A DNA stretch of 64,000 nucleotides, taken from NCBI GenBank assembly GCA_964505035.1, contig CAZDGK010000001.1:12270-76269 (forward strand), read 5' to 3'. The notes under the pieces were generated by a model. It did not search any database and was not told the origin of the DNA. It worked only from the letters and a program-made list of their open reading frames with translations. Positions 14-63,398 of this stretch are shown one piece after another (the first letter of the stretch is position 1; each line of letters opens with the position of its first letter). The position numbers and the translations under genes were made by a program. This stretch comes from an uncultured Candidatus Saccharimonadales bacterium (lineage in GTDB: Bacteria; Patescibacteriota; Saccharimonadia; UBA4664).

Positions 14-658
14 ATGGTTATAACCAGTCCGACCCACTGGATGGGCCACGAAGAACTTGGCCAACGTGCCGATGAAACTGGTCAAATCGTTTCGCAAACA
101 ATTTCTGAAGAACTTGCGGCACGCGGTGGAAACCCTACCCGCCTTATTAACACTAGCGACAACATTCACGGCGATCTTACCAGGCAGCATAGAGGCATTG
201 AAGAAGCCCGCCTATTCAATGATCGCCAATTTACGGCGTTCATGCGCGAGCGCTACGGTGGCCAAGGTCGCGAATTTTGGGATGCGGTTAATGCAGACAC
301 CCACCGTGAACTGCGCGAAAGCCTGGGAGCAGAAGGGCCAGAAGATGTTGCCGCTAGGGTCCAGAGAACAATCGACCTCATTGCGCGTTTTGGCGAATAC
401 TACGAGCATCGCAACCCTGGTCGCAGGCTAGCGACGTTTATTATTACTCACCAAGAAGATCTTGAACCTTACGCGCAGCGTCGGCTAGGTGTTGCACCTG
501 CCGATTTCCAGCCTGGTTACAACGACGGCCTAGAAATCGCCATAGGCGCCGATGGGACAGCGACTGCCACGGTAAATGGACGAGAGTATGAAGCACCGGT
601 AACAACCAATCGGCCCCTTCCAGAGCGACAGCCAGGCGAGGCCGAACCAGGTGAGTAA
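14..658 (+). CDS. Hypothetical protein, probably 5'-truncated by the window edge. It lies in the low-GC island and overlaps the start of the next gene.
   Basis: The reading frame is open back to nt 2. The stop overlaps the start of the 651..3125 ORF. Local GC is about 45-55%. No motif I recognise. Confidence 0.4.
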   Translation: MVITSPTHWMGHEELGQRADETGQIVSQTISEELAARGGNPTRLINTSDNIHGDLTRQHRGIEEARLFNDRQFTAFMRERYGGQGREFWDAVNADTHRELRESLGAEGPEDVAARVQRTIDLIARFGEYYEHRNPGRRLATFIITHQEDLEPYAQRRLGVAPADFQPGYNDGLEIAIGADGTATATVNGREYEAPVTTNRPLPERQPGEAEPGE

Positions 659-3125
659 AAAGCTGAATTTTATACCGATGTACGAGATCGGTATGATCTC
701 GCCGCTTTACCCATGTATCGAGAACGGAGCCACATTTACCGATTTAATGCCGAAACTCGGTTTTTATGGCGACAAACACTTTTTGCTGTATTCAAACTTC
801 AATCTGGCTACCGCATACTACGAAGCCGACGAAATGTTACTATCAGGCAGGTATACATTTAGGCACTTGTCGAAGCCAACGCAGTTCACCCATTTTGTAA
901 ACGGCGTACATGAATCTGTTGCTAGAATACGTCAGTTCCTAGATAGGCTCGATAAGTTGGATGTTTGGACTATGCCGCAGGCAGAGCTAATAGACTTGCT
1001 TATAGAAAACAGCGAGATCGAAGCTAACATCTTCGCCTACTATAACAACACCCAACCTCAGAATTTCGCCATATTTGAACAAAAAATTATGGCGGCTCTG
1101 CGCAAAAAAGGCTTAGCCGAAGACGAAGCAATAGCAGCCATGTCGACGCTAACAACGTCTGAAGTCCCCACCCGTCTTAGCGAAGACGAATCCGACTGGC
1201 TACGTTTGGTCTTGGCGGCCAAACAGCAGCTTCCTTCTGACTGGAAAGCAATACGGCTGGAAAAGACCCACCCTGGCATTTACTCAAAGCTGCAAAAGCA
1301 CTTTGACGTTTATAAAACCCTACTGCTCGGCGATGGAAACTGGCAGCCTGATGTCAGCCATTATGTAAGCCTTCTCCGCAATGACATTGTTCGCCCGGCT
1401 GTTGAGCTGAATGAACGCCTAAAAGAACTAACCCAGTTTGCGACCAAGACTAAAGTGGCTAAAGCCGCACTCATTAAGCGCCTGGCGCTAACTGACGACA
1501 TAGTATTTTATGCTCATGTTATTAGCGAAGTAGGACATGTAAGGCTAATGATGCGAATAGATGGATTTATGCCGCTCGCCTATGCCAACGACAAGCCAAT
1601 CGTCGAGGCCCTAGCCCGCACATACAAGCTAGGTTCCCCAGAATTCAGATACATCACCTATGATGAGCTACTTAGCCTGCGCTCAAAGAATCCGCAACTA
1701 AACGCAGCAGAACTGAAGCGCCGGTTCAAGGAAAAGCACTTCCTTCTGATAGTAAACAATGGCAAGTACGAAATGTTGTTTGGCAAAAGTGCAGATATGG
1801 CCTTCGCCAAACTTGTGCCAGAAGCAAATTACTATACCGTAGAAGAGTTGTCGGGTAGTACAGCAATGGGCGGTCGCGTCAAAGGTATGGCCGTTGTATT
1901 TAACTGGGGTGACAATCTGCAAGATGCGCTAGACAAACTGCCTAAAGATGCCATTTTGGTGGCCGGTCAGACTAGGCCGCAGCTAATGCCATTAATCCGC
2001 GCGAGTAAAGGAATTATTACCGACGAGGGTGGTGTTATGAGCCACGCTGCGATAGTTGCTCGCGAGTTAGAAATGCCATGCATCGTAGGAACAAAAGTAG
2101 CGACAAAAGTGCTAAGGACAGGCGACTTAATCGAGCTAGATGCTGACAACGGTGTAATTAAGGTTATAGAGCACACTAACAAGACCAAAGCCGCACTATC
2201 TTACAAACGTATGTCTGCAACACAAAAGACAAAGAAGCTTGCCGGTAAGCCGGCAAGCACAACGTTGGTCGTTCAGCCCATTCTGCAATTCGATGAAATT
2301 AAGCAAGGCGAAACGGGTCTGGTTGGCGGTAAGGGCGGATCACTAGCTGCACTTTCGCGGGCGGGGCTGCCAGTTCCACCAGGGTTTGTGGTTACTACAG
2401 AATGCTTTAGGGCGTTTTCGACAAGCAAGATACCCGGCGACGTTCAAAAGAAGATCCTCGCAGCCTTCGACAAACTAGGGATAGATTATGTTGCGGTTCG
2501 GTCTTCGGCGATTGCAGAAGATTCTAAAGACACGTCCTGGGCCGGCCAGTTCGATACCCTATTGAATGTTACTCGCGATGGTTTAATTGCAGCAATTCAG
2601 AGCTGCTGGTATTCTGCCGAATCTGACTTGGTGCAGGATTATGCCAAAGATAACAAAATCGGGCGCGAAGATTTGGCACTTGCAGTGGTGGTTCAGGCAA
2701 TGGTTTCTAGTGATGTGTCTGGCGTGGCGTTTACCCACAACCCAGTTACCGGCGCCGCAAACGAAATAATGATAGAGGCCTGCTTTGGACTTGGTGAGAT
2801 GTTAGTCCAGGGCATGGTGACGCCAGATAACTTCTTGGTTGATAAGCAAGATTTAAGCGTTATGTCGCACGCGGCCAATAAACAACAGGTCATGCTCAGT
2901 TATGTGAAGGGCCAAAACATTGAGCTGCCCGTGCCTAACCCTAAAGCCAGTAAGCTTACTAAAACCCAACTGTTGGTAGTCGCTGGCCTTGCAAAGCGCA
3001 TAGAAGACTTCTACGGCACACCTCAAGACATTGAATGGGCGATGTCTAAGGGCCGAGTATACATAGTCCAATCACGCCCCATCACAACGCTGAAATCTTC
3101 TCGTCGTAAGGCGTCAAAGACCTAG
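651..3125 (+). CDS. PEP-utilising-enzyme / rifampin-phosphotransferase-like protein with permuted domain order: an N-terminal domain of unknown function, then a swivel phosphohistidine domain, then a C-terminal PPDK_N-type ATP-grasp domain.
   Basis: Phosphohistidine domain motif: 'GIITDEGGVMSHAAIVARELEMPCIVG'. The C-terminal half carries 'GGKGGSLAAL...LPVPPGFVVT...VAVRSSAIAEDS....IVQSRPIT', typical of the PEP-synthase/PPDK N-terminal nucleotide-binding domain. 824 aa. GC about 45% versus about 63% elsewhere. Confidence 0.75.
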   Translation: MSKKLNFIPMYEIGMISPLYPCIENGATFTDLMPKLGFYGDKHFLLYSNFNLATAYYEADEMLLSGRYTFRHLSKPTQFTHFVNGVHESVARIRQFLDRLDKLDVWTMPQAELIDLLIENSEIEANIFAYYNNTQPQNFAIFEQKIMAALRKKGLAEDEAIAAMSTLTTSEVPTRLSEDESDWLRLVLAAKQQLPSDWKAIRLEKTHPGIYSKLQKHFDVYKTLLLGDGNWQPDVSHYVSLLRNDIVRPAVELNERLKELTQFATKTKVAKAALIKRLALTDDIVFYAHVISEVGHVRLMMRIDGFMPLAYANDKPIVEALARTYKLGSPEFRYITYDELLSLRSKNPQLNAAELKRRFKEKHFLLIVNNGKYEMLFGKSADMAFAKLVPEANYYTVEELSGSTAMGGRVKGMAVVFNWGDNLQDALDKLPKDAILVAGQTRPQLMPLIRASKGIITDEGGVMSHAAIVARELEMPCIVGTKVATKVLRTGDLIELDADNGVIKVIEHTNKTKAALSYKRMSATQKTKKLAGKPASTTLVVQPILQFDEIKQGETGLVGGKGGSLAALSRAGLPVPPGFVVTTECFRAFSTSKIPGDVQKKILAAFDKLGIDYVAVRSSAIAEDSKDTSWAGQFDTLLNVTRDGLIAAIQSCWYSAESDLVQDYAKDNKIGREDLALAVVVQAMVSSDVSGVAFTHNPVTGAANEIMIEACFGLGEMLVQGMVTPDNFLVDKQDLSVMSHAANKQQVMLSYVKGQNIELPVPNPKASKLTKTQLLVVAGLAKRIEDFYGTPQDIEWAMSKGRVYIVQSRPITTLKSSRRKASKT

Positions 3126-3534
3126 CAAATAACTTTGTGGCTTACTGCCGGCCGGCATTACAACGAGATTGCCTGCTCTACCCTCAAGGATGTAGTACAT
3201 GAAATCTGACTCATGTTCAACGAGTGTGGTTTCGTGTCCATTTTCCGCGTCGATCAGTACAAAACCGGCTTTGTCGCTTAGTTCCCGGCTGGGAAATATT
3301 TTGCCTTAATGCCGACTTTATCAAAAGAAATAGTCGAGGGTTCATGAATTACATACATGCTGAGTGTATAGCGAATCTATGTCATAGCTATGTGGACCTT
3401 GCAAAAGTTTGGACATCCTATCTCTCCTGCCAGTAATTATCTATTTATTGCCTCCACAAAGCCCTGGCTGGTATACTATGCCAGACCTCAATCAGTCTGT
3501 CCGGATTCGTCCGGCAGCTCAGAAGGGTGGCGAC

Positions 3535-4041
3535 ATGTCCGACATACAGCCAATAACGAGCGGACCATGGTATTACTGTGCCCTCGTGACCATCCTCGTT
3601 GGATGGCCCCTCACGCTCGACGCGCTTTTGCGCTGGCCCTCCAGCTATCGCAAAGCCGGCCTGCACAAGTGGAAGTGGGTCACAGCGGCCCTCCTCTCCA
3701 ATCTGCTGTTCTACCCGGGGCTCGTCTTCGCGATCGTCTATCTCTTCAGCGCACGCGCTAAAATCAGGGCGACCAAACCCCGCCCCATACGCGATGCGTT
3801 CCGGGAAGCGAGAGAAACCAGCAACTCCGGCGGCTCCGGCAGCACCAGCGGCTCCACCACTGGTAGCGGACGGGGATCGACCGGCAGCAAGCGGCAATCG
3901 TTTATGCCGGACCGGCCGGCACATGTGCCAACCAAGCGGACACCCGTGCCCTGCGGCGCATGCCGGGCGACCGGACGCAACCCAGACGGCACCGTCTGCA
4001 CCTCGTGCGGCGGAAGCCGCAATGTGATTGGCACCTTCTAA
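3535..4041 (+). CDS. Small membrane protein (2-3 TM helices) with a C-terminal double CxxCxGxG (DnaJ-type) zinc-finger motif.
   Basis: An AGAAGGG Shine-Dalgarno (SD) sequence precedes the ATG at 3535. Hydrophobic segments present. C-terminus reads 'CGACRATGRNPDGTVCTSCGGSR'. An upstream in-frame extension to 3409 is possible. Confidence 0.5.
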   Translation: MSDIQPITSGPWYYCALVTILVGWPLTLDALLRWPSSYRKAGLHKWKWVTAALLSNLLFYPGLVFAIVYLFSARAKIRATKPRPIRDAFREARETSNSGGSGSTSGSTTGSGRGSTGSKRQSFMPDRPAHVPTKRTPVPCGACRATGRNPDGTVCTSCGGSRNVIGTF

Positions 4042-4209
4042 CACTAGGCGCCACTTCAACAGTCCGGCCTCGTGCAGAGGCCGGACTGTTTCATTTCTTC
4101 CGCAAAGTCTCGGTTAACATCCTGCCACCCCTTCCATGAACTATAATTCTGCACAAGAAAGACCCGCCCAAGAGGCGGGCCTGTCTTGTCTAGGGTTTCG
4201 TGGCTGCTG

Positions 4210-4650
4210 TTAGAATATTTTGAAGGATGAGATTCTGTCGTTCAGCGCACTTCCTACCCAGGGCACGAAGCCACCTTGGGCGCTGGTTGTGATCCAGCCG
4301 GCACCGCCGCCGGTACAGTTGTTTGTGTCATAGAAGTACACAATGCTGCCATAGTTTAGGTTTGAAACCAGAGAGCTTGCCCGGTTGTCAAACGAGAAAG
4401 CGCCATTAACCATAGGGATGCAGGTATTGGCTGGCGGCACACTAAAACCTACCTGCGTGCCGCTATAGTTAATGTCTTGCCAGAAACAGATCGAATTCGA
4501 CCAACACGCGGCCTGGGCGGTTGCTGTCTGCACCATGGCTAGCGGCGAAACGAAAGCCAAGCTCATGCTGAGCAAGACCAGCGCATGGCGGGCAAGTTTA
4601 ATGTTACGGAGTCTTAGTGCGCCCGAGCGCACCGTCTGAAGAAACTTCAT
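4210..4650 (-). CDS. Secreted protein with a beta/gamma-crystallin (peptidase-inhibitor I36 / killer-toxin-like) fold.
   Basis: Signal peptide 'MKFLQTVRSGALRLRNIKLARHALVLLSMSLAFVSPLAMVQTATAQA'. A GGAGGG SD precedes the ATG at 4650. Paired Cys/Tyr/Trp motifs ('CWSNSICFWQDINYSG', 'FDNRASS', 'NDRISSFKI'). Confidence 0.5.
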   Translation of the reverse strand: MKFLQTVRSGALRLRNIKLARHALVLLSMSLAFVSPLAMVQTATAQAACWSNSICFWQDINYSGTQVGFSVPPANTCIPMVNGAFSFDNRASSLVSNLNYGSIVYFYDTNNCTGGGAGWITTSAQGGFVPWVGSALNDRISSFKIF

Positions 4651-4751
4651 ACGACCCTCCAGTGAATTTGTAAAATACACCCTAGTAATTTCATTATAAC
4701 GCTTATGTCTAGTCCGGTCGGTCAAGGGATTACTTCTGGTATACTCTGCTT

Positions 4752-19137: not shown

Positions 19138-20076
19138 ATGAAACAGCCGGACCAACCGCTTGATCTGGTGATTATTGGCGCGGGCCCAGCCGGTCTGGCC
19201 GCTGCTGTCTACGCCACTCGCGAGGGGCTTCGGGTGGCAGTACTCGAAAGAGCTGTCGTCGGCGGACTCGCCGCCATCACCGCCACCATCGACAACTATC
19301 CCGGCTTCGACCAAGGGGTCGGCGGCCTGGAGCTAGCCGATCACCTCGCTGCCCATGCCCACCGCTTCGGCGCCGATCTTCGCACCGGTATCGAGGTCAC
19401 CAAGCTCGAGGCCGGCGACGGGGGAGTGCAGCTCACCACCAACCAGGGGCCACTCCACACCCGCAGCGCACTGGTGGCCACCGGCTCGAGCTATCGCCGG
19501 CTCGATGTGCCCGGCGAAGACCGGCTAGTGGGCCGGGGTGTGCACTACTGCGCCACCTGCGATGGTCCGCTCTACCGCGGCAAGGAACTCGTAGTGGTAG
19601 GCGGCGGCAATTCTGCCATGCAGGAGGGGCTATTCCTGGCCCGGTTCGCCAGCCATCTCACTATCTTGGTACGTGGCCACTCACTTGGCGGCACTACCAT
19701 CCTGCGCAATCAGCTTGCCGCCCTGCCCAACGTCTCGGTCGTCTACGACACCCCAGTCACCAGCCTGTCCAAAACTGGCGGCCGGGTGCAGGTCAACCAC
19801 TTGGGCCCAGCGGGGAAGGCCGGCCACCTCACTACCGATGGCGTGTTCGTCTTTGTTGGCCAGCAGGCAAATACCAAAGCCTTCGCCAGCACCCTCAAGC
19901 TCGACCCCCAGGGCTACATCATCACGACACCCGACTTTCGCACCAACCTACCCGGGGTCTACGCCGCCGGTGATGTGCGCTCCGGCAGCACGTGGCAAAT
20001 CGCCAGCGCCGTGGGTGACGGCGTCACAGCCGCCCTGGCCATCCGGGCCGCGCTCTCTGGATCTAGCCGCTCCTAA
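19138..20076 (+). CDS. trxB: Thioredoxin-disulfide reductase.
   Basis: FAD motif 'IIGAGPAGLAAA', redox-active 'CATCDG' and NADPH motif 'VVGGGNSA'. Confidence 0.9.
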   Translation: MKQPDQPLDLVIIGAGPAGLAAAVYATREGLRVAVLERAVVGGLAAITATIDNYPGFDQGVGGLELADHLAAHAHRFGADLRTGIEVTKLEAGDGGVQLTTNQGPLHTRSALVATGSSYRRLDVPGEDRLVGRGVHYCATCDGPLYRGKELVVVGGGNSAMQEGLFLARFASHLTILVRGHSLGGTTILRNQLAALPNVSVVYDTPVTSLSKTGGRVQVNHLGPAGKAGHLTTDGVFVFVGQQANTKAFASTLKLDPQGYIITTPDFRTNLPGVYAAGDVRSGSTWQIASAVGDGVTAALAIRAALSGSSRS

Positions 20077-34681: not shown

Positions 34682-34756
34682 TGGTTCTATTATTGACTTA
34701 CACCTGGTTTTCAGGCATATTATTGACAAAGCCGACGGCTTTTTAAATTTGTCGCT

Positions 34757-34945
34757 ATGAAACCACTCATCGAATACCTCACCGCCAGCCGGGCCGAGTT
34801 AGCCAAAGTAGCCTGGCCCAGCCGCCGCCAAACCGCCCGGCTAACGTTCCTCGTGATCGGGTTCTCGCTCGTATTCGCCGCCGCCCTCGGTTTACTCGAC
34901 TTCGCTTTCTCAGAGTTGCTCCGCCGCGTAATTATTAAGGGATAA
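34757..34945 (+). CDS. secE: Preprotein translocase SecE.
   Basis: 62 aa with a C-terminal TM helix. Directly upstream of nusG. Confidence 0.85.
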   Translation: MKPLIEYLTASRAELAKVAWPSRRQTARLTFLVIGFSLVFAAALGLLDFAFSELLRRVIIKG

Positions 34946-34947
34946 CT

Positions 34948-35490
34948 ATGTCCGAATCTGCCAAGACTAAGCACCACTGGTACGTCATTCACACCTACTC
35001 CGGCTACGAAGACCGCGTCGCCGAAAACCTGCGTCAGCGCATCGAGACCATGCACATGCAGGACAAAATCTTTGACGTCATCGTGCCCAAAGAAAACCAG
35101 ATCGAGATCAAAAACGGCCGCCGGCGCATCGTCGAGCGCCGCATCTTCCCCGGCTACGTCCTGGTGCAGATGGATGTTACCGAAGACTCTTGGTATGTCG
35201 TGCGTAACACTCCCAATGTCACCGGCTTCGTCGGATCCGGCACGACACCTACCGCCGTCAGCGAGGATGAGGTCCGCCACATCCAGAAGCGCATGGGCGT
35301 CGAAGAGCCCAAGTTTAAGATCGACTTTAGCGTTGGCGAAGCCGTCAACATCACCGACGGTCCCTTCAAGGGCTTCGACGGCATGGTCAATGAGATTGAC
35401 GAGAACAAGGGCAAGATCAAGGTCCTCGTCAACATGTTTGGCCGCGAAACGCCAGTCGAGCTCGACAGCCTCCAGGTCAAGAAGATCTAA
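34948..35490 (+). CDS. nusG: Transcription termination/antitermination factor NusG.
   Basis: 'HWYVIHTYSGYE' NGN domain and a C-terminal KOW domain. Confidence 0.95.
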   Translation: MSESAKTKHHWYVIHTYSGYEDRVAENLRQRIETMHMQDKIFDVIVPKENQIEIKNGRRRIVERRIFPGYVLVQMDVTEDSWYVVRNTPNVTGFVGSGTTPTAVSEDEVRHIQKRMGVEEPKFKIDFSVGEAVNITDGPFKGFDGMVNEIDENKGKIKVLVNMFGRETPVELDSLQVKKI

Positions 35491-35600
35491 CCGTTCCCGA
35501 TACTGGACTTCACAAACATCACCAAATCTGCTACTATACCGCAGATATTCGTTATAAGTGGGAGCCGCGAACCGGCGCTCGTACCACAAAGGAGTAACTC

Positions 35601-47271: not shown

Positions 47272-47326
47272 TGTTATAACACGTAGACACCAGCCAGCTC
47301 TTTGACCGCACGAATCGAGGTGAGCT

Positions 47327-47668
47327 ATGACTGGCACCGCCGAGCAGACATTGCTCGTCACGGACGGCCCCAAGCAAGGCGCCCTGCTGCGGCTAGGCCT
47401 GTTCTGGATCGTCTCCAGTTCTGGGCCTCCCCGCGCTCTGCTGCTGCGGGCGTGGCTGGATGGGCGCAATACCCACCAGCTCTTCACGCTCATGGCAGAG
47501 CATTGGCAGGAAAATACACCCGGACAATGGGTACTGCACGGCCAGGTGTTCGACACCCTGCCCGGAGGAGATCCCAGCGAGTCGCTGGGCCTCTACGTAG
47601 TGCGCTACAACGCCTGGTCGGGCCAAGGCTTCGGCCGTCCAACCTCACCGGCGCCCCATCTCGTGTGA
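47327..47668 (+). CDS. Hypothetical protein.
   Basis: GAGGTGAG lies 5 nt upstream of the ATG. 113 aa. Confidence 0.5.
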   Translation: MTGTAEQTLLVTDGPKQGALLRLGLFWIVSSSGPPRALLLRAWLDGRNTHQLFTLMAEHWQENTPGQWVLHGQVFDTLPGGDPSESLGLYVVRYNAWSGQGFGRPTSPAPHLV

Positions 47669-47686
47669 TGGGGCGCCGCCCCTTTT
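47650..47686 (+). terminator. Rho-independent terminator overlapping the stop codon.
   Basis: GGCGCCCCATC-tcgtgt-GATGGGGCGCC (11-bp stem), followed by a T-rich run (CCTTTTC). Confidence 0.55.
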
Positions 47687-47796
47687 CGGCGCTAGCCGAT
47701 AACCTCATGATATACACAGCTCAGTCTACCAATATTGGGATATACTAGAACCAGATGCGATTTCGTATTTAAGCAAATTCGCAAAAGAAGTGGAGA

Positions 47797-58555: not shown

Positions 58556-59149
58556 ATGAACATCGCTTTCTTCACCGCCCATCCCGACGACCACGAGATG
58601 ATGCTGGCCTACCAAACCCTGGAGCTCCAGTCCCGGCCCGACACCACCCTCTACGCCTACATCGCGACCAATGGCGAAGCCAGCACCCTAGGCCACCCCG
58701 CCTTCGTGCGTTCCGGCCAGCGCCGCCACGAATCAGCCGCCGGCCTAGCTGCCCTTGGCATTAGATCAGGCCACATCCACCACGCCGGCCTGCCAGACGG
58801 TCGTTTGACCGACGAAGCCACCTTTACCCAGCTCGGCGGCAGCATCAGGCATTTCATCGAACACCACCAAATCACTCAGGCCGTCACACTCGGAGCCAAT
58901 GGGGGAGATTACCACCCAGACCATATCGCGGTCCACCAAGCCGTCGCCGGCCAAAAGCTCCCCATTCTGGCCCTCAACGCCGCTCATACTGGCCAGCTTG
59001 CGATTACCCCGACTATCAGCCAGCGCCTAGCCAAGCTCACCGCCCTGTCGCATCACCGCAGCCAATTCCCCGAGCCGTCTCGCATTGGCCCGCCGTGGGA
59101 ACGCTTTTTAGCTGCCGAAACCTACGACCATATTCTAAATGCGCTATAG
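58556..59149 (+). CDS. LmbE / PIG-L family N-acetylglucosaminyl deacetylase.
   Basis: 'IAFFTAHPDDHEMM' is an AHPDDE-type zinc-binding motif. Confidence 0.8.
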   Translation: MNIAFFTAHPDDHEMMLAYQTLELQSRPDTTLYAYIATNGEASTLGHPAFVRSGQRRHESAAGLAALGIRSGHIHHAGLPDGRLTDEATFTQLGGSIRHFIEHHQITQAVTLGANGGDYHPDHIAVHQAVAGQKLPILALNAAHTGQLAITPTISQRLAKLTALSHHRSQFPEPSRIGPPWERFLAAETYDHILNAL

Positions 59150-59547: not shown

Positions 59548-60948
59548 ATGCGTCTCCATAACACCCTCACCCGTCAAACCGAAGAGCTCAAACCCATTAA
59601 ACCAGGAGAGGTTAGCCTCTACACCTGTGGCTTTACCGTCTACGACTATGCCCATATTGGCAATGCCTTTGCCTATCTAGCCTGGGACAACTTGCGCCGT
59701 GCGCTGGAGCTAAGTGGCTACAAGGTTCGCCATGTCATGAACATTACCGACGTCGGCCACCTGGTATCTGATGCCGACGAGGGCGAGGACAAACTCGAAA
59801 AAGGCGCCAAGCGGGCCGGCAAAACCGTTTGGGACATCGCCGAGCATTACACCGAAGCCTTCAAACAAGACATGCTGGCACTCAACATCTTGCCGCCCAA
59901 CGCCTACACCGACCCCAAACGCCACGATCACTACGCCCGTGCCACCGACTTCATCCCCCAGCAAATCGAGCTCGTCCAGCGCCTATTTGACCATGGCTTT
60001 GTCTACCAAACTGAGCAAGCCATCTACTTTGACGTCACCAAGCTGCCCAGTTACGGCGAGCTGAGTGGCCAAAAATTGACCGACAAAGAAGTGGCGGTCC
60101 GCGACGAAGTAGTGTCCGACCCCAGCAAGCACCACCCGTACGACTTTGCCGTCTGGTTCTTCACCGTTGGCCACTACGCCGACCACACCATGCACTGGCC
60201 GTCGCCTTGGGGCGAAGGCTTCCCAGGCTGGCATCTGGAGTGCTCAGCCATTATCCATGCCACTCTAAACGACCCCATCGACATCCACACCGGCGGCATT
60301 GACCATATTGGCACCCACCACACCAATGAAATGGCCCAAACCGAAGCCGCTTTTGGCCACCGGCTGGCCAATAACTGGCTGCACAACAACTTCATGCTAG
60401 TCGACGGCGGCAAAATGAGTAAATCCAAGCAAAACTTTTACACGCTACGAGACCTCACCGACAAGGGCTTCAGCCCCTTGGCTTACCGGTTGCTACTCCT
60501 GCAATCGCACTACCGCACACCGCTCAACTTTACCTGGGAATCGCTCGAAGCCGCGCAAAACACCCTGCTCAATCTGCATGCCTGGGCCGACCAAACTCAC
60601 CAAGGCGAGTCCGGCGGCCTCCCGGCCGGATGGGACCAGCCAGTCATTACCGCCCTGGCCAACGATCTTGACACCGCCACCGGACTAGCCCATGTGTTCG
60701 AGCTAAGTAGCCAGCACACGCCTACCCAAGCCGACCTCAAGCAGCTCGATAATATCTTTGGTCTCAGCCTAGCCAACCGGTCCGATATCACCGCCGCCCA
60801 AAAGCGGCTGATCGCCGACCGTGAGGCCGCCCGGGTCGCCAAAGATTGGGCCAAATCCGACGCCCTCCGTGACACCCTCCGCCAGGAGCATCAGCTCGAC
60901 ATCGACGACACCCCGGCCGGCCCGCGCTGGCGCCGCACCGCCATCTAG
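59548..60948 (+). CDS. cysS: Cysteine--tRNA ligase.
   Basis: 'HIGN' and 'KMSKS' motifs. The C-terminal helical domain 'REAARVAKDWAKSDALRDTLRQEHQLDIDDTPAGPRWRR' is typical of CysRS and absent from MshC. Confidence 0.95.
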   Translation: MRLHNTLTRQTEELKPIKPGEVSLYTCGFTVYDYAHIGNAFAYLAWDNLRRALELSGYKVRHVMNITDVGHLVSDADEGEDKLEKGAKRAGKTVWDIAEHYTEAFKQDMLALNILPPNAYTDPKRHDHYARATDFIPQQIELVQRLFDHGFVYQTEQAIYFDVTKLPSYGELSGQKLTDKEVAVRDEVVSDPSKHHPYDFAVWFFTVGHYADHTMHWPSPWGEGFPGWHLECSAIIHATLNDPIDIHTGGIDHIGTHHTNEMAQTEAAFGHRLANNWLHNNFMLVDGGKMSKSKQNFYTLRDLTDKGFSPLAYRLLLLQSHYRTPLNFTWESLEAAQNTLLNLHAWADQTHQGESGGLPAGWDQPVITALANDLDTATGLAHVFELSSQHTPTQADLKQLDNIFGLSLANRSDITAAQKRLIADREAARVAKDWAKSDALRDTLRQEHQLDIDDTPAGPRWRRTAI

Positions 60949-60960
60949 CCGGACAGAAAG

Positions 60961-61003
60961 AGCCCTCAGCGCGACCATCACATGGTCACACTGAGGGCTT
61001 TTG
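60961..61003. terminator. Nested, bidirectional intrinsic terminator between convergent genes.
   Basis: AGCCCTCAG-cgc-GACCAT-cac-ATGGTC-aca-CTGAGGGCT followed by TTTTG. It overlaps the 3' end of the minus-strand gene. Confidence 0.6.
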
Positions 61004-61291
61004 CATCAACGGCTCGAGGAGCCGCTTCAGGTCGCGGACAGTCCGCAGCGGCCGATGACGGTACCAGGTAGACAACCACTGCACATAGTCCACGATGTCG
61101 CCAGTGGCGCCGCAGCCTAGGCACAGGTAGCGCCCGTCCGGCCACAGCCGGCACGACGGCGTTAGCTCATCGTGGACGGGGCACATGACGTACTTGCCAT
61201 GCCGGGATTGCACGCCCAGCGCCGCCAGCACATCCGCCCAAGCCACCGTCTGGCGAACTCGCGCGCAATATCGCTTGTTAACCTTTAGCAC
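60986..61291 (-). CDS. Stand-alone primase-type CHC2 zinc-finger protein (101 aa).
   Basis: 'CPVHDELTPSCRLWPDGRYLCLGCGATGDIVDYV' is a CxH...CxxC DnaG-type zinc finger, with no downstream primase domains. Confidence 0.6.
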   Translation of the reverse strand: MLKVNKRYCARVRQTVAWADVLAALGVQSRHGKYVMCPVHDELTPSCRLWPDGRYLCLGCGATGDIVDYVQWLSTWYRHRPLRTVRDLKRLLEPLMQKPSV

Positions 61292-61518
61292 GTTTCACCT
61301 CGCTTTGGTGAATCGTTGGCTGGTCCCGGTGCGGTCTTGCTGCCCGCGCCCGCACCGGATCGACTCAAGGCCTGCCTCGCGGATCGGTATTGACCTCGGT
61401 CCCACTGCAAGGCTCCAGTCACCGCCGTAGCGGCTCAGCGTCGCCTTGCCGAGCATTATGGCACACATTCAGATACAAATTCACCCCCGGACGCGAATAC
61501 GCATCCGGGGGCAGGGAA

Positions 61519-62715
61519 TTAGCCGACCAGCAACTGGTCCCACCGCAGGTATTCACCCGGCGGGATCGAAGCCTGCAGCAGCTCCGGGTTCAGCTCCATC
61601 AGCTGGTGCAAGAACTCCGTCGCCACCGCGGTGCTCAGGTCTTGGCCCGGACACCGCCGGCTGCCACGACCAAACGTGAACCACGGCTTGCCGGGCAATG
61701 GCCGGCGGCCGGGCCGGAACACGTCGGGGTCCTGGCCGATCCAGAGCGGATCGCGATTGGCACTGGTCCAGCAGGCGTACACGAACATGTACGGCAGCAG
61801 GGGCCGGCCGGCTAGCCACATCGGCCAGCGCACCCGGTGCGGTCTGCCCAGGCCCGATCCGTAGAACCGGCCGGACTCAGAGTAGATCGCAAAGCCCTCA
61901 CGAAACCAGTTGGGGCCCAGCAGTTTGACACGCCAGGCGTCGTACTCAGCCGGATCCAAATGGGTCCGCATCAGCGCATACGCCATCGCAATAGCAAACG
62001 ACGATGTCTGCGTACCGGACAGGAACAGGAAGAACAACATTCCGAGCTTCTGGATATCCACCAGACGCTCCGACCGCAGCAAGCGGTCGACCGGCATGTC
62101 CAGTGCCACACTCAACCGAGTCTCGATGTAGTCCCAGAAGAACTGGTTCATGTCGAACTGCGGCTTGAGCAGGAGCGGCGGAGTCAGACTAAATTCGTCC
62201 AGCCACCGGAAGAACATGCGCATGTGCTCATCGCTCAGGAGGTATGGATCCTCAATGCCAAGCAACGTGCACATCACGAGGTATGTCACCTTGTCGGTTA
62301 CCCGCGCCAGGTTGAACACACCTGATTGCTCAGCCAAGCACTGCCGCACAATGTCGGCGATCTTTGGCTTGAGCCCCGTCGTGTTGATGGCCTCCGGAGA
62401 GACCATCTCGACCGCCAGGCCGCGCAGGAGATCCAGCTCCTCGCCCGGCCCCTTGGCCGACGGTCCGCGCATTACCAGGTGATCCTTGTCGATATTCGGC
62501 TTCTTGAAGCCGGGGATCGCCTCGCGCGTGACAGGCCGCAGCACTCGGTGCTCCGACCAGTCCATTACCCAGGCCACCTTCTTGGCGCTGTAGACGCACT
62601 CCATGGCCGTGGGACCCATCTTGACGTAATGTGACTTACGTCTCGGATCGAGCTTGCCTTCGTACGGCGCTGCCAGCGCCGCCCGCAGCTCATCCAGTGA
62701 TGCAGCTTGGATCAT
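61519..62715 (-). CDS. Cytochrome P450.
   Basis: Heme-binding loop 'FGRGSRRCPGQDL'. ATG at 62715 preceded by an AAGGGA RBS. The ORF's GTG start at 62787 lies inside the promoter -10 box. Confidence 0.85.
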   Translation of the reverse strand: MIQAASLDELRAALAAPYEGKLDPRRKSHYVKMGPTAMECVYSAKKVAWVMDWSEHRVLRPVTREAIPGFKKPNIDKDHLVMRGPSAKGPGEELDLLRGLAVEMVSPEAINTTGLKPKIADIVRQCLAEQSGVFNLARVTDKVTYLVMCTLLGIEDPYLLSDEHMRMFFRWLDEFSLTPPLLLKPQFDMNQFFWDYIETRLSVALDMPVDRLLRSERLVDIQKLGMLFFLFLSGTQTSSFAIAMAYALMRTHLDPAEYDAWRVKLLGPNWFREGFAIYSESGRFYGSGLGRPHRVRWPMWLAGRPLLPYMFVYACWTSANRDPLWIGQDPDVFRPGRRPLPGKPWFTFGRGSRRCPGQDLSTAVATEFLHQLMELNPELLQASIPPGEYLRWDQLLVG

Positions 62716-62785
62716 TACCGATCCCTTCAGCGGTTCGATGGGGTATTGCTTCCTACCGCACCAGATGGTGCCGCAAGACGCCTGC

Positions 62786-62814
62786 ACTATACCAGACGTC
62801 TTAGTAATTAGCTA
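62786..62814 (-). promoter_or_regulatory. Extended -10 promoter (TGGTATAGT) with a weak -35 (TAGCTA) for the P450 gene.
   Basis: Minus strand TAGCTA, 17-nt spacer, TATAGT with TGG upstream. It lies inside the 3' end of the PRTase-like gene. Confidence 0.4.
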
Positions 62815-63374
62815 GCGCACACTGGGCACTGGCTCGGCGCATACGACAACATCGGCTCCTCCACCAAAAAATGTGGCGTCACCCCGGAGGCATACTCGGG
62901 CCGTAGCTCACCCCGCCGCCAAATCGCCAGGGCGTGGATGTCCTGCCGCTCCGGCTCAAGCAATCGCACCACCCCGGCTACCGAGCTCAGAGTAGTCACA
63001 ATGTCTTCATAAATCCGCGGGCTCTTGGCGTCCAGCGCCAGCTCGCGGTCGGCCTCGCTCGCAAACCGGAAATCTTGCTTCGCCCCGCCCGGCACCCGCT
63101 CCAGTTGCACCACCGGCAGTCCCAGCCATTCCGGGCCGCCCAGCCGGTCGGCCAGATATTGGCCGCCGCGGGGCACTCCCAGTAGCACATCAGCCGGCGG
63201 CAAACCGTCCGCCCGGGCCAACCCCGCCAACACTACCGCCAATGGCTCCGGATGCTCCCATAGGTAGTCGGCGTCAAGCTTGCGCACCGCATGGTCGCCA
63301 GCCGCAAACACAAAGTGCCCCTCCCGCAGCATCCCGCTCGCCAATACCGCCTGTCGTATTGCTTGGCTCATCAC
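62808..63374 (-). CDS. Phosphoribosyltransferase (OPRTase-like, type I PRT fold) protein with a C-terminal CPVC motif.
   Basis: 'GHFVFAAGDHAVRKLD' and a degenerate PRPP-binding 'RIYEDIVTTLSSV'. Confidence 0.55.
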   Translation of the reverse strand: MMSQAIRQAVLASGMLREGHFVFAAGDHAVRKLDADYLWEHPEPLAVVLAGLARADGLPPADVLLGVPRGGQYLADRLGGPEWLGLPVVQLERVPGGAKQDFRFASEADRELALDAKSPRIYEDIVTTLSSVAGVVRLLEPERQDIHALAIWRRGELRPEYASGVTPHFLVEEPMLSYAPSQCPVCAS

Positions 63375-63398
63375 AGCCTATGCTACACTAGTCTGCGT

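Follow-up and report, generated by a model that had tools for sequence, protein, structure and literature searches.

The closest described relatives of the enzyme considered here were the bacterial class-I cytochromes P450 of the CYP107/CYP109 type (CYP109E1, 5l90; P450eryF, 1jip; BioI, 3ejb; PikC, 2cd8) together with the archaeal CYP119 (1io8). We found a protein of the same kind encoded in a 64,000-nucleotide stretch of DNA, hereafter called the window, from an uncultured Candidatus Saccharimonadales bacterium (GenBank assembly GCA_964505035.1, contig CAZDGK010000001.1, positions 12,270 to 76,269 of the forward strand). Its gene stood between a gene for a stand-alone zinc ribbon of the DnaG primase type (zf-CHC2) and a gene for a phosphoribosyltransferase (PRTase) resembling orotate phosphoribosyltransferase (OPRTase). 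The window P450 was like the CYP107/CYP109-type enzymes in its predicted fold (template modelling (TM) score of about 0.75), its length of about 400 aa, its solubility and its possession of the FxxGxRxCxG loop, the ExxR motif and the I-helix threonine. It differed from them in sharing only 15-22% identity with the solved P450s among the Foldseek matches, in having SGTQT in the I helix in place of AGxET, and in belonging to a clade with its own N-terminal PYxGxLDPxR motif. Moreover, its host was a member of the Candidate Phyla Radiation (CPR), and its gene was linked neither to a ferredoxin or reductase gene nor to a biosynthetic cluster.

Described counterparts also existed for the two flanking proteins. 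The zinc ribbon shared the CHC2 ligand pattern and spacing with the zinc-binding domains of DnaG and phage primases (PF01807; 1d0q), as well as the N-terminal helix before the ribbon, but it lacked the RNA-polymerase/Toprim and helicase-binding domains of DnaG. Unlike DnaG and the phage primases, it was an orphan in sequence and was encoded on the chromosome between housekeeping genes. The PRTase had the type-I fold in common with the short OPRTases of the Thermus/Aeropyrum/Helicobacter type (TIGR01367; 2yzk, 4paw). It also shared with them the GxxxGG pyrophosphate (PPi) loop, the acidic pair and the two threonines of the phosphoribosyl pyrophosphate (PRPP) loop, and a basic flexible loop. The differences were a PRPP loop reading TTLSS rather than TTG(G/T)S, the WRRG motif, which was invariant, and the CxxC at the C-terminus.

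To our knowledge, CPR bacteria and Saccharibacteria in particular are generally regarded as having tiny genomes without respiratory and oxygen-dependent tailoring chemistry and without haem biosynthesis. A full-text literature search found no description of a P450 in CPR bacteria, and nothing relevant was found in the literature on OPRTase in CPR or on stand-alone CHC2 fingers. Our overall reading of the locus, which we considered probable, was that it comprised three independent core-chromosome genes, namely a PRTase of a family spread across CPR, a native and divergent P450, and an orphan zinc ribbon.

Identity of the cytochrome P450

The original prediction, made from the DNA sequence without database searches, had called the middle protein a cytochrome P450 and had pointed out that such enzymes are uncommon in streamlined genomes. 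Both remarks were apt. The motifs, the fold and the clade profile agreed on the P450 call, and the NCBI entry for this sequence was a hypothetical protein from a Candidatus Saccharimonas sp. metagenome-assembled genome (MAG). As judged from its motifs and its structural model, the middle protein is a genuine P450, predicted to be a haem-thiolate enzyme with the class-I fold.

The sequence FGRGSRRCPGQD was present in the protein. The cysteine-ligand loop read FGRGSRRCPG, with F348, G351, R353, C355 and G357 as its signature residues and Cys355 as the ligand. The phenylalanine, the cysteine and G357 of this loop were invariant across the clade alignment. The K-helix ExxR motif (E280/R283), nearly invariant in the same alignment, lay in a predicted helix spanning residues 270-284. 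In the I helix, S-G-T-Q-T237-S aligned with A-G-N-E-T-T of CYP109E1, and T237 was invariant in the clade. The position before this threonine held Gln236, and the acidic residue (Asp or Glu) was found there in none of the 11 clade members, which had Q, I, H, V, A, G and others instead.

Homology searches led to the same family. As a single sequence, the P450 scored 17.4 bits against Pfam PF00067, below the curated gathering score of 22.8. A phmmer search against the PDB sequences returned P450s only, although the matches were weak (best 9e-6), whereas a profile built from the clade matched CYP109E1 with E=1.9e-37 and 543 PDB sequences with E<1e-8. The AlphaFold2 (AF2) model, built on 11 clade sequences, had a mean predicted local distance difference test score (pLDDT) of 88 and a predicted TM score (pTM) of 0.90. 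With this model, Foldseek gave 1654 matches at E<=1e-3 in the PDB, and the best 50 of the 1654 were all P450s or P450-like proteins, at the TM scores and identities given above.

The open reading frame (ORF) of the P450 spanned positions 61519-62787 of the reverse strand. The ATG at 62715 was taken as its start, for a product of 398 aa, because an AAGGGA Shine-Dalgarno sequence lay 6 nt upstream, the starts of the homologues coincided with it and the public gene calls were identical. A 422-aa product starting from the GTG at 62787 was rejected, as that codon lay inside a -10-like element and the homologues aligned from the ATG. The N-terminus contained no evident signal or transmembrane segment, so the protein would be cytoplasmic.

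Rarity and divergence of the P450 clade

A word-index search of 5.8e9 proteins with the P450 found only the query itself. Exhaustive phmmer against 1.84e9 representative proteins yielded 40 matches with E<1e-3, of which five, the query included, had E<1e-30. The best non-self match was 35% identical and came from another Saccharibacteria MAG. The nearest relative, P0081, was encoded on a contig labelled uncultured Candidatus Saccharibacteria and was the sole clade relative with a taxonomic label. A pattern-limited scan of JGI metagenomes for the clade returned one weak fragment, and scans of PHROGs and PADLOC gave no match for either the P450 or the PRTase.

Identities within the 11-member clade alignment ranged from 19 to 39%. 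Most of the other members had a tyrosine in place of arginine or histidine two residues before the ligand cysteine (position C-2), four carried insertions of 7-17 residues inside the cysteine-ligand loop, and one (P0088) had no ExxR motif. By convention, P450s are placed in a shared CYP family at 40% identity, and the best match of the window P450, at 35%, was below this value. Since the clade was distant from all characterised P450s, it can be considered as a candidate new CYP family. On the sequences recovered, the clade is very rare and deeply divergent, and those of its members that could be assigned taxonomically were Saccharibacteria only.

Purifying selection and native composition

A second assembly (GCA_035479255.1, contig DATIIW010000231.1) represented a sister strain in which the 5-kb arrangement was the same and the sequence 99.33% identical. 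Of the 34 differences between the two assemblies, 13 fell in the P450 gene, and all of them were synonymous. A random single-base change in this gene would be synonymous in 24% of cases. The probability that all 13 are so under neutrality was thus about 1e-8, and the gene must therefore be functional. The PRTase gene had four synonymous and no non-synonymous differences, and the zinc-finger gene had neither. The spacer just upstream of the latter differed at 5 positions in 50 nt. The gene junctions were alike in three assemblies, and a Logan contig reproduced the PRTase-P450 junction exactly.

The original prediction had suggested a comparison of GC content and codon usage with the host, and this revealed no deviation. 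The codon-usage z scores of the zinc-finger, P450 and PRTase genes (-0.04, +0.30 and -0.55, respectively) were all within the distribution of the window. The GC content at third codon positions (GC3) was 0.81 for the P450 and 0.78 for the zinc-finger gene, with a window mean of 0.735. Thus, the P450 gene is intact, under strong purifying selection and native to its lineage.

The zinc-ribbon and PRTase proteins

The 101-aa protein consisted, as predicted, of a DnaG-type CHC2 finger and nothing else. It matched Pfam PF01807 with E=1.4e-7 and 31.6 bits (cutoff 24.9), and it aligned to the primase zinc-binding domain 1d0q (E=6e-5) with all four zinc ligands (C37, H40, C57 and C60) in register. The DnaG match was restricted to residues 6-73 of the 101 aa, and no other domain was present. 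Against the bacterial DnaG model the protein reached 26.5 bits, with a cutoff of 283.6. Its gene had a GTG start preceded by an AGGTGA Shine-Dalgarno sequence.

The original prediction had proposed conservation of the zinc-finger gene in relatives as a check. A search of 5.8e9 proteins found only the protein itself. Among the PHROGs it matched phrog_11992 with E=1.2e-12, and in tblastn the aligned zinc-binding domains of phage primases were 30-44% identical and covered 51-78% of the query, a resemblance at the domain level only. IMG/VR contained no relative. The PADLOC matches were at the domain level only, in primase-like proteins associated with defence-associated reverse transcriptases (DRT). 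The zinc-ribbon protein would most likely bind single-stranded DNA, influence the replicative primase in trans or serve as a small regulator; this was the weakest part of our proposal.

The PRTase had been described as an OPRTase-like protein ending in CPVC. Its C-terminus read ...QCPVCAS, containing the CxxC, and both Foldseek and profile searches matched it to OPRTases. It had no Pfam match at E<=0.01 and scored 29.2 bits against TIGR01367, whose equivalog cutoff is 150.25. The AF2 model (pLDDT 96) was closest in Foldseek to OPRTases, namely the OPRT domain of human UMPS and the enzymes of A. pernix and H. pylori, at TM scores of 0.65-0.77. Additionally, the family profile matched A. pernix OPRTase 2yzk with E=1.2e-7, and the PPi, flexible and PRPP loops were aligned.

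We found 79 homologues at 50-69% identity across CPR bacteria, including one labelled Candidatus Roizmanbacteria. The PRPP loop, IYEDIVTTLSS, kept the E-D pair and the two threonines and had Leu-Ser for the usual Gly-x; across 31 aligned homologues it did not vary, except that a few had TTG. The WRRG motif and the C-terminal CxxC were likewise conserved in this alignment. No pyr genes were located next to the PRTase gene, either in the window or in the five relatives compared. We treated the protein as a housekeeping-type salvage enzyme of the OPRTase lineage, conserved across CPR, whose catalytic competence we assumed. It would most likely transfer the phosphoribosyl group from PRPP to a scavenged base. 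The base specificity of this family, which has no conserved gene neighbours, is of interest in nucleotide-scavenging organisms.

Organisation of the locus

The features of the locus are listed in Table 1. The original prediction had spoken of a convergent cluster. This held only for the zinc-finger gene, which converged with cysS, since the zinc-finger, P450 and PRTase genes were all co-directional. The cysS gene belongs to the core-chromosome context and is outside any cluster.

Table 1. Features of the P450 locus (positions in the window)
Feature	Position	Strand	Basis or remark
cysS (cysteinyl-tRNA synthetase)	59548-60948	+	Pfam tRNA-synt_1e E=8.3e-87; convergent neighbour
Bidirectional intrinsic-terminator hairpin	60958-61002	both	common to cysS and the zinc-finger gene
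zf-CHC2 gene, 101 aa	60986-61291	-	PF01807 above gathering score
Extended -10-like element TGcCATAAT, 5' of the zinc-finger gene	61455-61463	-	consensus match only, read from sequence
Intrinsic-terminator-like hairpin after the P450 gene	61482-61513	-	14-pair stem, then AATTTGTATC
Cytochrome P450, 398 aa, soluble	61519-62715	-	motifs, fold, clade profile
Extended -10-like element TGgTATAGT in the PRTase-P450 spacer	62786-62794	-	consensus match only, read from sequence
OPRTase-like type-I PRTase, 187/188 aa	62808-63374	-	profile, AF2 fold, homologue alignment
ABC-transporter membrane domain gene	starts 63399	divergent from the PRTase gene	flank of the locus

The strong bidirectional terminator that had been proposed at 60961-61003 was confirmed. 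Its hairpin had an 18-pair stem with 10 GC pairs and a dG of -38.7 kcal/mol (z=-7.75), and none of 200 shuffled sequences folded equally well. It could be regarded as bidirectional because one of its flanks was rich in A and the opposite one in T. The terminator took in the end of the zinc-finger gene, namely the stop codon and the five codons before it, and these five were within the stem. The second hairpin started 5 nt past the stop codon of the P450 gene, had 10 GC pairs in its stem and was recovered in the minimum-free-energy fold of the intergenic RNA. By its position, this hairpin divides the P450 gene from the zinc-finger gene, and these two at least are candidate separate transcription units.

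An extended -10 promoter for the P450 gene had been predicted within the 3' end of the PRTase gene. The element TGgTATAGT was indeed present, but it was located beyond the PRTase stop codon (62808-62810), at a distance of 14 nt on the downstream side and within the 92-nt spacer between the two genes, and only a -35 element for the P450 would overlap the 3' end of the PRTase gene. A scan with a two-hexamer consensus found no promoter in the locus, the TGgTATAGT and TGcCATAAT sites included.

A 57-aa ORF in the spacer between the P450 and zinc-finger genes (61295-61468, reverse strand) was annotated as a gene in one public assembly. We rejected it because three of its four differences from the sister strain altered the protein, one of them by a stop codon.

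The divergent starts of the PRTase and ABC-transporter genes were about 25 nt apart (63372-63398). As this interval was too short for two promoters, one start or one promoter must fall within the neighbouring gene.

Other scanned ORFs of the window encoded core-chromosome functions, such as DnaB, DnaX, RecR, the ribosomal proteins L1, L10, L11 and L12 and an F-type ATP synthase. They also included ThyA, SHMT, TatC, an AspRS/LysRS-type synthetase and glycosyltransferases. The only flavoprotein of the window, a TrxR-like protein (19138-20076), was tried as a YumC-type ferredoxin reductase and rejected, since its CATC motif identified it as a true thioredoxin reductase.

Linkage of the genes in relatives

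The neighbourhoods of five PRTase relatives and five P450 relatives were compared. The PRTase homologues were flanked by glucokinase and DsbB, by PMSR and an acyltransferase, by AAA/TrwB-like proteins, by a CAP-domain protein with Gmad2 and HhH-GPD, or by HTH, AHSA1 and NTP_transf_6 proteins. A P450 or a zinc finger was present in none of these five neighbourhoods. The neighbours of the P450 relatives were NMT1 with a PAS histidine kinase, MarR and SnoaL; AHSA1; glyoxalase/Ble-like proteins; DUF1801; and Inhibitor_I36. Here again, genes for PRTases, zinc fingers and ferredoxins were absent from all five neighbourhoods. Thus, P450 and PRTase orthologues were located in unrelated loci of the relatives, an outcome that the original prediction had named beforehand as refuting its reading. 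Overall, the features that it described were confirmed, whereas its interpretation was supported in part only.

Signs of a mobile element were also sought. No integrase, transposase or recombinase was found among the scanned ORFs, no tRNA gene in the 64 kb despite the ribosomal-protein operons, and no flanking repeats at the locus. Rfam at gathering scores recognised no family in the window, and within the locus there was only a chance match to RNase MRP (E=0.41). Judged from these comparisons, the three genes are probably functionally independent, and their adjacency is an ordinary juxtaposition. This negative result matters, since adjacency alone would wrongly imply a biosynthetic cluster.

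Predicted role of the P450

It was likely that the P450 would oxidise a small hydrophobic molecule, either exogenous or host-derived, and thus serve as an accessory enzyme of detoxification or modification. It would use scavenged haem, and its electrons would come from donors encoded outside the window. Haem scavenging is plausible because soil Saccharibacteria, for which it has been proposed, possess a haem-dependent cytochrome bo3 oxidase but, of the haem pathway, encode no more than the last step (PMC6031116). The P450 supports the view that soil Saccharibacteria are adapted to oxic environments and rely on haem that they scavenge (PMC6031116). Being intact, native and under selection, it would also add an oxygen- and haem-dependent enzyme to the repertoire of CPR and Saccharibacteria. 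Since the I-helix acid is missing, an atypical route of O2 or peroxide activation is possible, and the clade is a potential source of unusual activation chemistry.

A further-reaching proposal was that the clade represents a haem-thiolate lineage restricted to Saccharibacteria and adapted to an episymbiotic, haem-scavenging life. It drew on the I-helix acid missing throughout the clade, on the remodelled cysteine loops of many members and on the lack of a linked redox partner. Such enzymes might rely on peroxide or an unconventional donor and modify lipids, quinones or antibiotics of the host. We considered this version rather unlikely. If it were true, the P450 would be a chemical-interaction enzyme of CPR bacteria.

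Alternative explanations

The pairing of P450 and PRTase had originally been taken to suggest secondary-metabolite or nucleoside-analogue chemistry, that is, a small biosynthetic unit with or without the zinc-finger gene. Such a unit would be in keeping with the adjacency of the two genes on the same strand, with the short spacer lacking a terminator, and with the atypical character of both proteins in their own superfamilies. However, the linkage was kept in none of the ten independent neighbourhoods, the PRTase family was widespread in CPR while the P450 was nearly unique, the P450 gene had its own promoter-like element and terminator, and no core biosynthetic enzyme was encoded in the scanned ORFs of the 64-kb window. 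We therefore held a biosynthetic unit to be very unlikely. Another possibility was that the zinc-finger and P450 genes had been acquired by horizontal transfer, as an islet left by a phage, plasmid or other mobile element between cysS and the PRTase gene; the original prediction had remarked that stand-alone fingers are typical of mobile-element or phage replication modules, or of regulators. Both genes were orphans among close homologues, the zinc ribbon scored best against a phage family and resembled phage primase domains, and the synteny around the PRTase gene varied among relatives. Yet codon usage and GC were like those of the rest of the window, no integrase or transposase was encoded in the scanned ORFs, flanking direct repeats and tRNA genes were missing, IMG/VR held no zinc-finger relative, and the nearest P450 relative occurred in another Saccharibacterium rather than in a phage or an unrelated phylum. 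An islet thus appeared improbable, although an ancient, fully ameliorated acquisition is conceivable. Hardly credible was the possibility, also raised at the outset, that the zinc-finger ORF is a pseudogene, the decaying N-terminal part of a former dnaG. The ORF did hold the N-terminal domain of DnaG only, but its four zinc ligands were intact, it had a good Shine-Dalgarno sequence, native codon usage and high GC3, and it was only distantly related to bacterial DnaG. Furthermore, it ended in a terminator abutting cysS, leaving no room for Toprim remnants, and it was identical in the sister strain next to a spacer that had diverged.

A different question was whether the P450-fold protein is a monooxygenase dependent on redox partners at all. 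It might instead act as a peroxygenase or peroxidase, catalyse a coupling or an isomerisation, or bind or store haem in an organism that has to scavenge it. The absence of the I-helix acid from 11 of 11 clade members pointed in this direction, as did the tyrosine at C-2 in many of them and the insertions in the cysteine loop. No redox partner was encoded near the clade members either, except in one neighbourhood (L015), where the gene of an NAD_binding_1 protein preceded that of the P450 by about 5.5 kb. On the other hand, the window P450 had a fully canonical cysteine loop (F, G, R, C and G) and kept Thr237, and class-I P450s are frequently encoded apart from their partners. A CYP152-type arginine signature was not found either, no search aimed at it having been made. 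A function other than that of a conventional, partner-dependent monooxygenase therefore seemed doubtful.

With three independent core-chromosome genes as the preferred reading, several observations weighed against it or against parts of it. Only one relative in the P450 clade carried a taxonomic label. The 92-nt spacer between the PRTase and P450 genes contained no terminator, so the two genes could still be co-transcribed by read-through. The PRPP loop of the PRTase had Leu-Ser where Gly-Gly/Thr is usual, and its catalysis was assumed. The role of the zinc ribbon was speculative; the protein had no close homologue and its gene no substitutions between the two strains. Finally, no ferredoxin, flavodoxin, FNR-type reductase or gene for haem synthesis or handling was found in the window, and the supply of electrons and haem was therefore unproven.

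Additional observations in the window

Some of the differences from the sister strain were clustered. Four transversions, all non-synonymous, fell within 45 nt of cysS (60452-60496), whose product differed by four residues in the sister strain, and eight differences fell within 58 nt at the 3' end of a PIG-L gene (59047-59104). These clusters could have arisen by recombination, from a consensus over mixed strains or through an error in assembly.

Several gene calls elsewhere in the window deserved attention. The ORF at 47302-47748 (forward strand) had no Pfam match, a codon-usage z of -3.64 and a GC3 of 0.54; it was probably not a real gene or was read in the wrong frame. Another ORF without a Pfam match (34720-35589, reverse strand; z -1.94, GC3 0.58) adjoined the L11/L1 genes. 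The longest ORF for ribosomal protein L1 (36091-37143, forward strand) encoded 350 aa, of which only residues 143-332 matched Pfam, so that either the true start is internal or the protein has an N-terminal extension of about 140 aa.

Positions 14-4725 of the window were a compositional outlier, with a GC content of 0.48-0.54 and a GC3 of 0.47-0.59 against window means of 0.61 and 0.735, and with codon-usage z scores of -1.4 to -2.2. This region encoded an 824-aa protein of the pyruvate phosphate dikinase (PPDK)/phosphoenolpyruvate (PEP)-utilising type and a secreted protein with an Inhibitor_I36 domain, and it may be foreign DNA.

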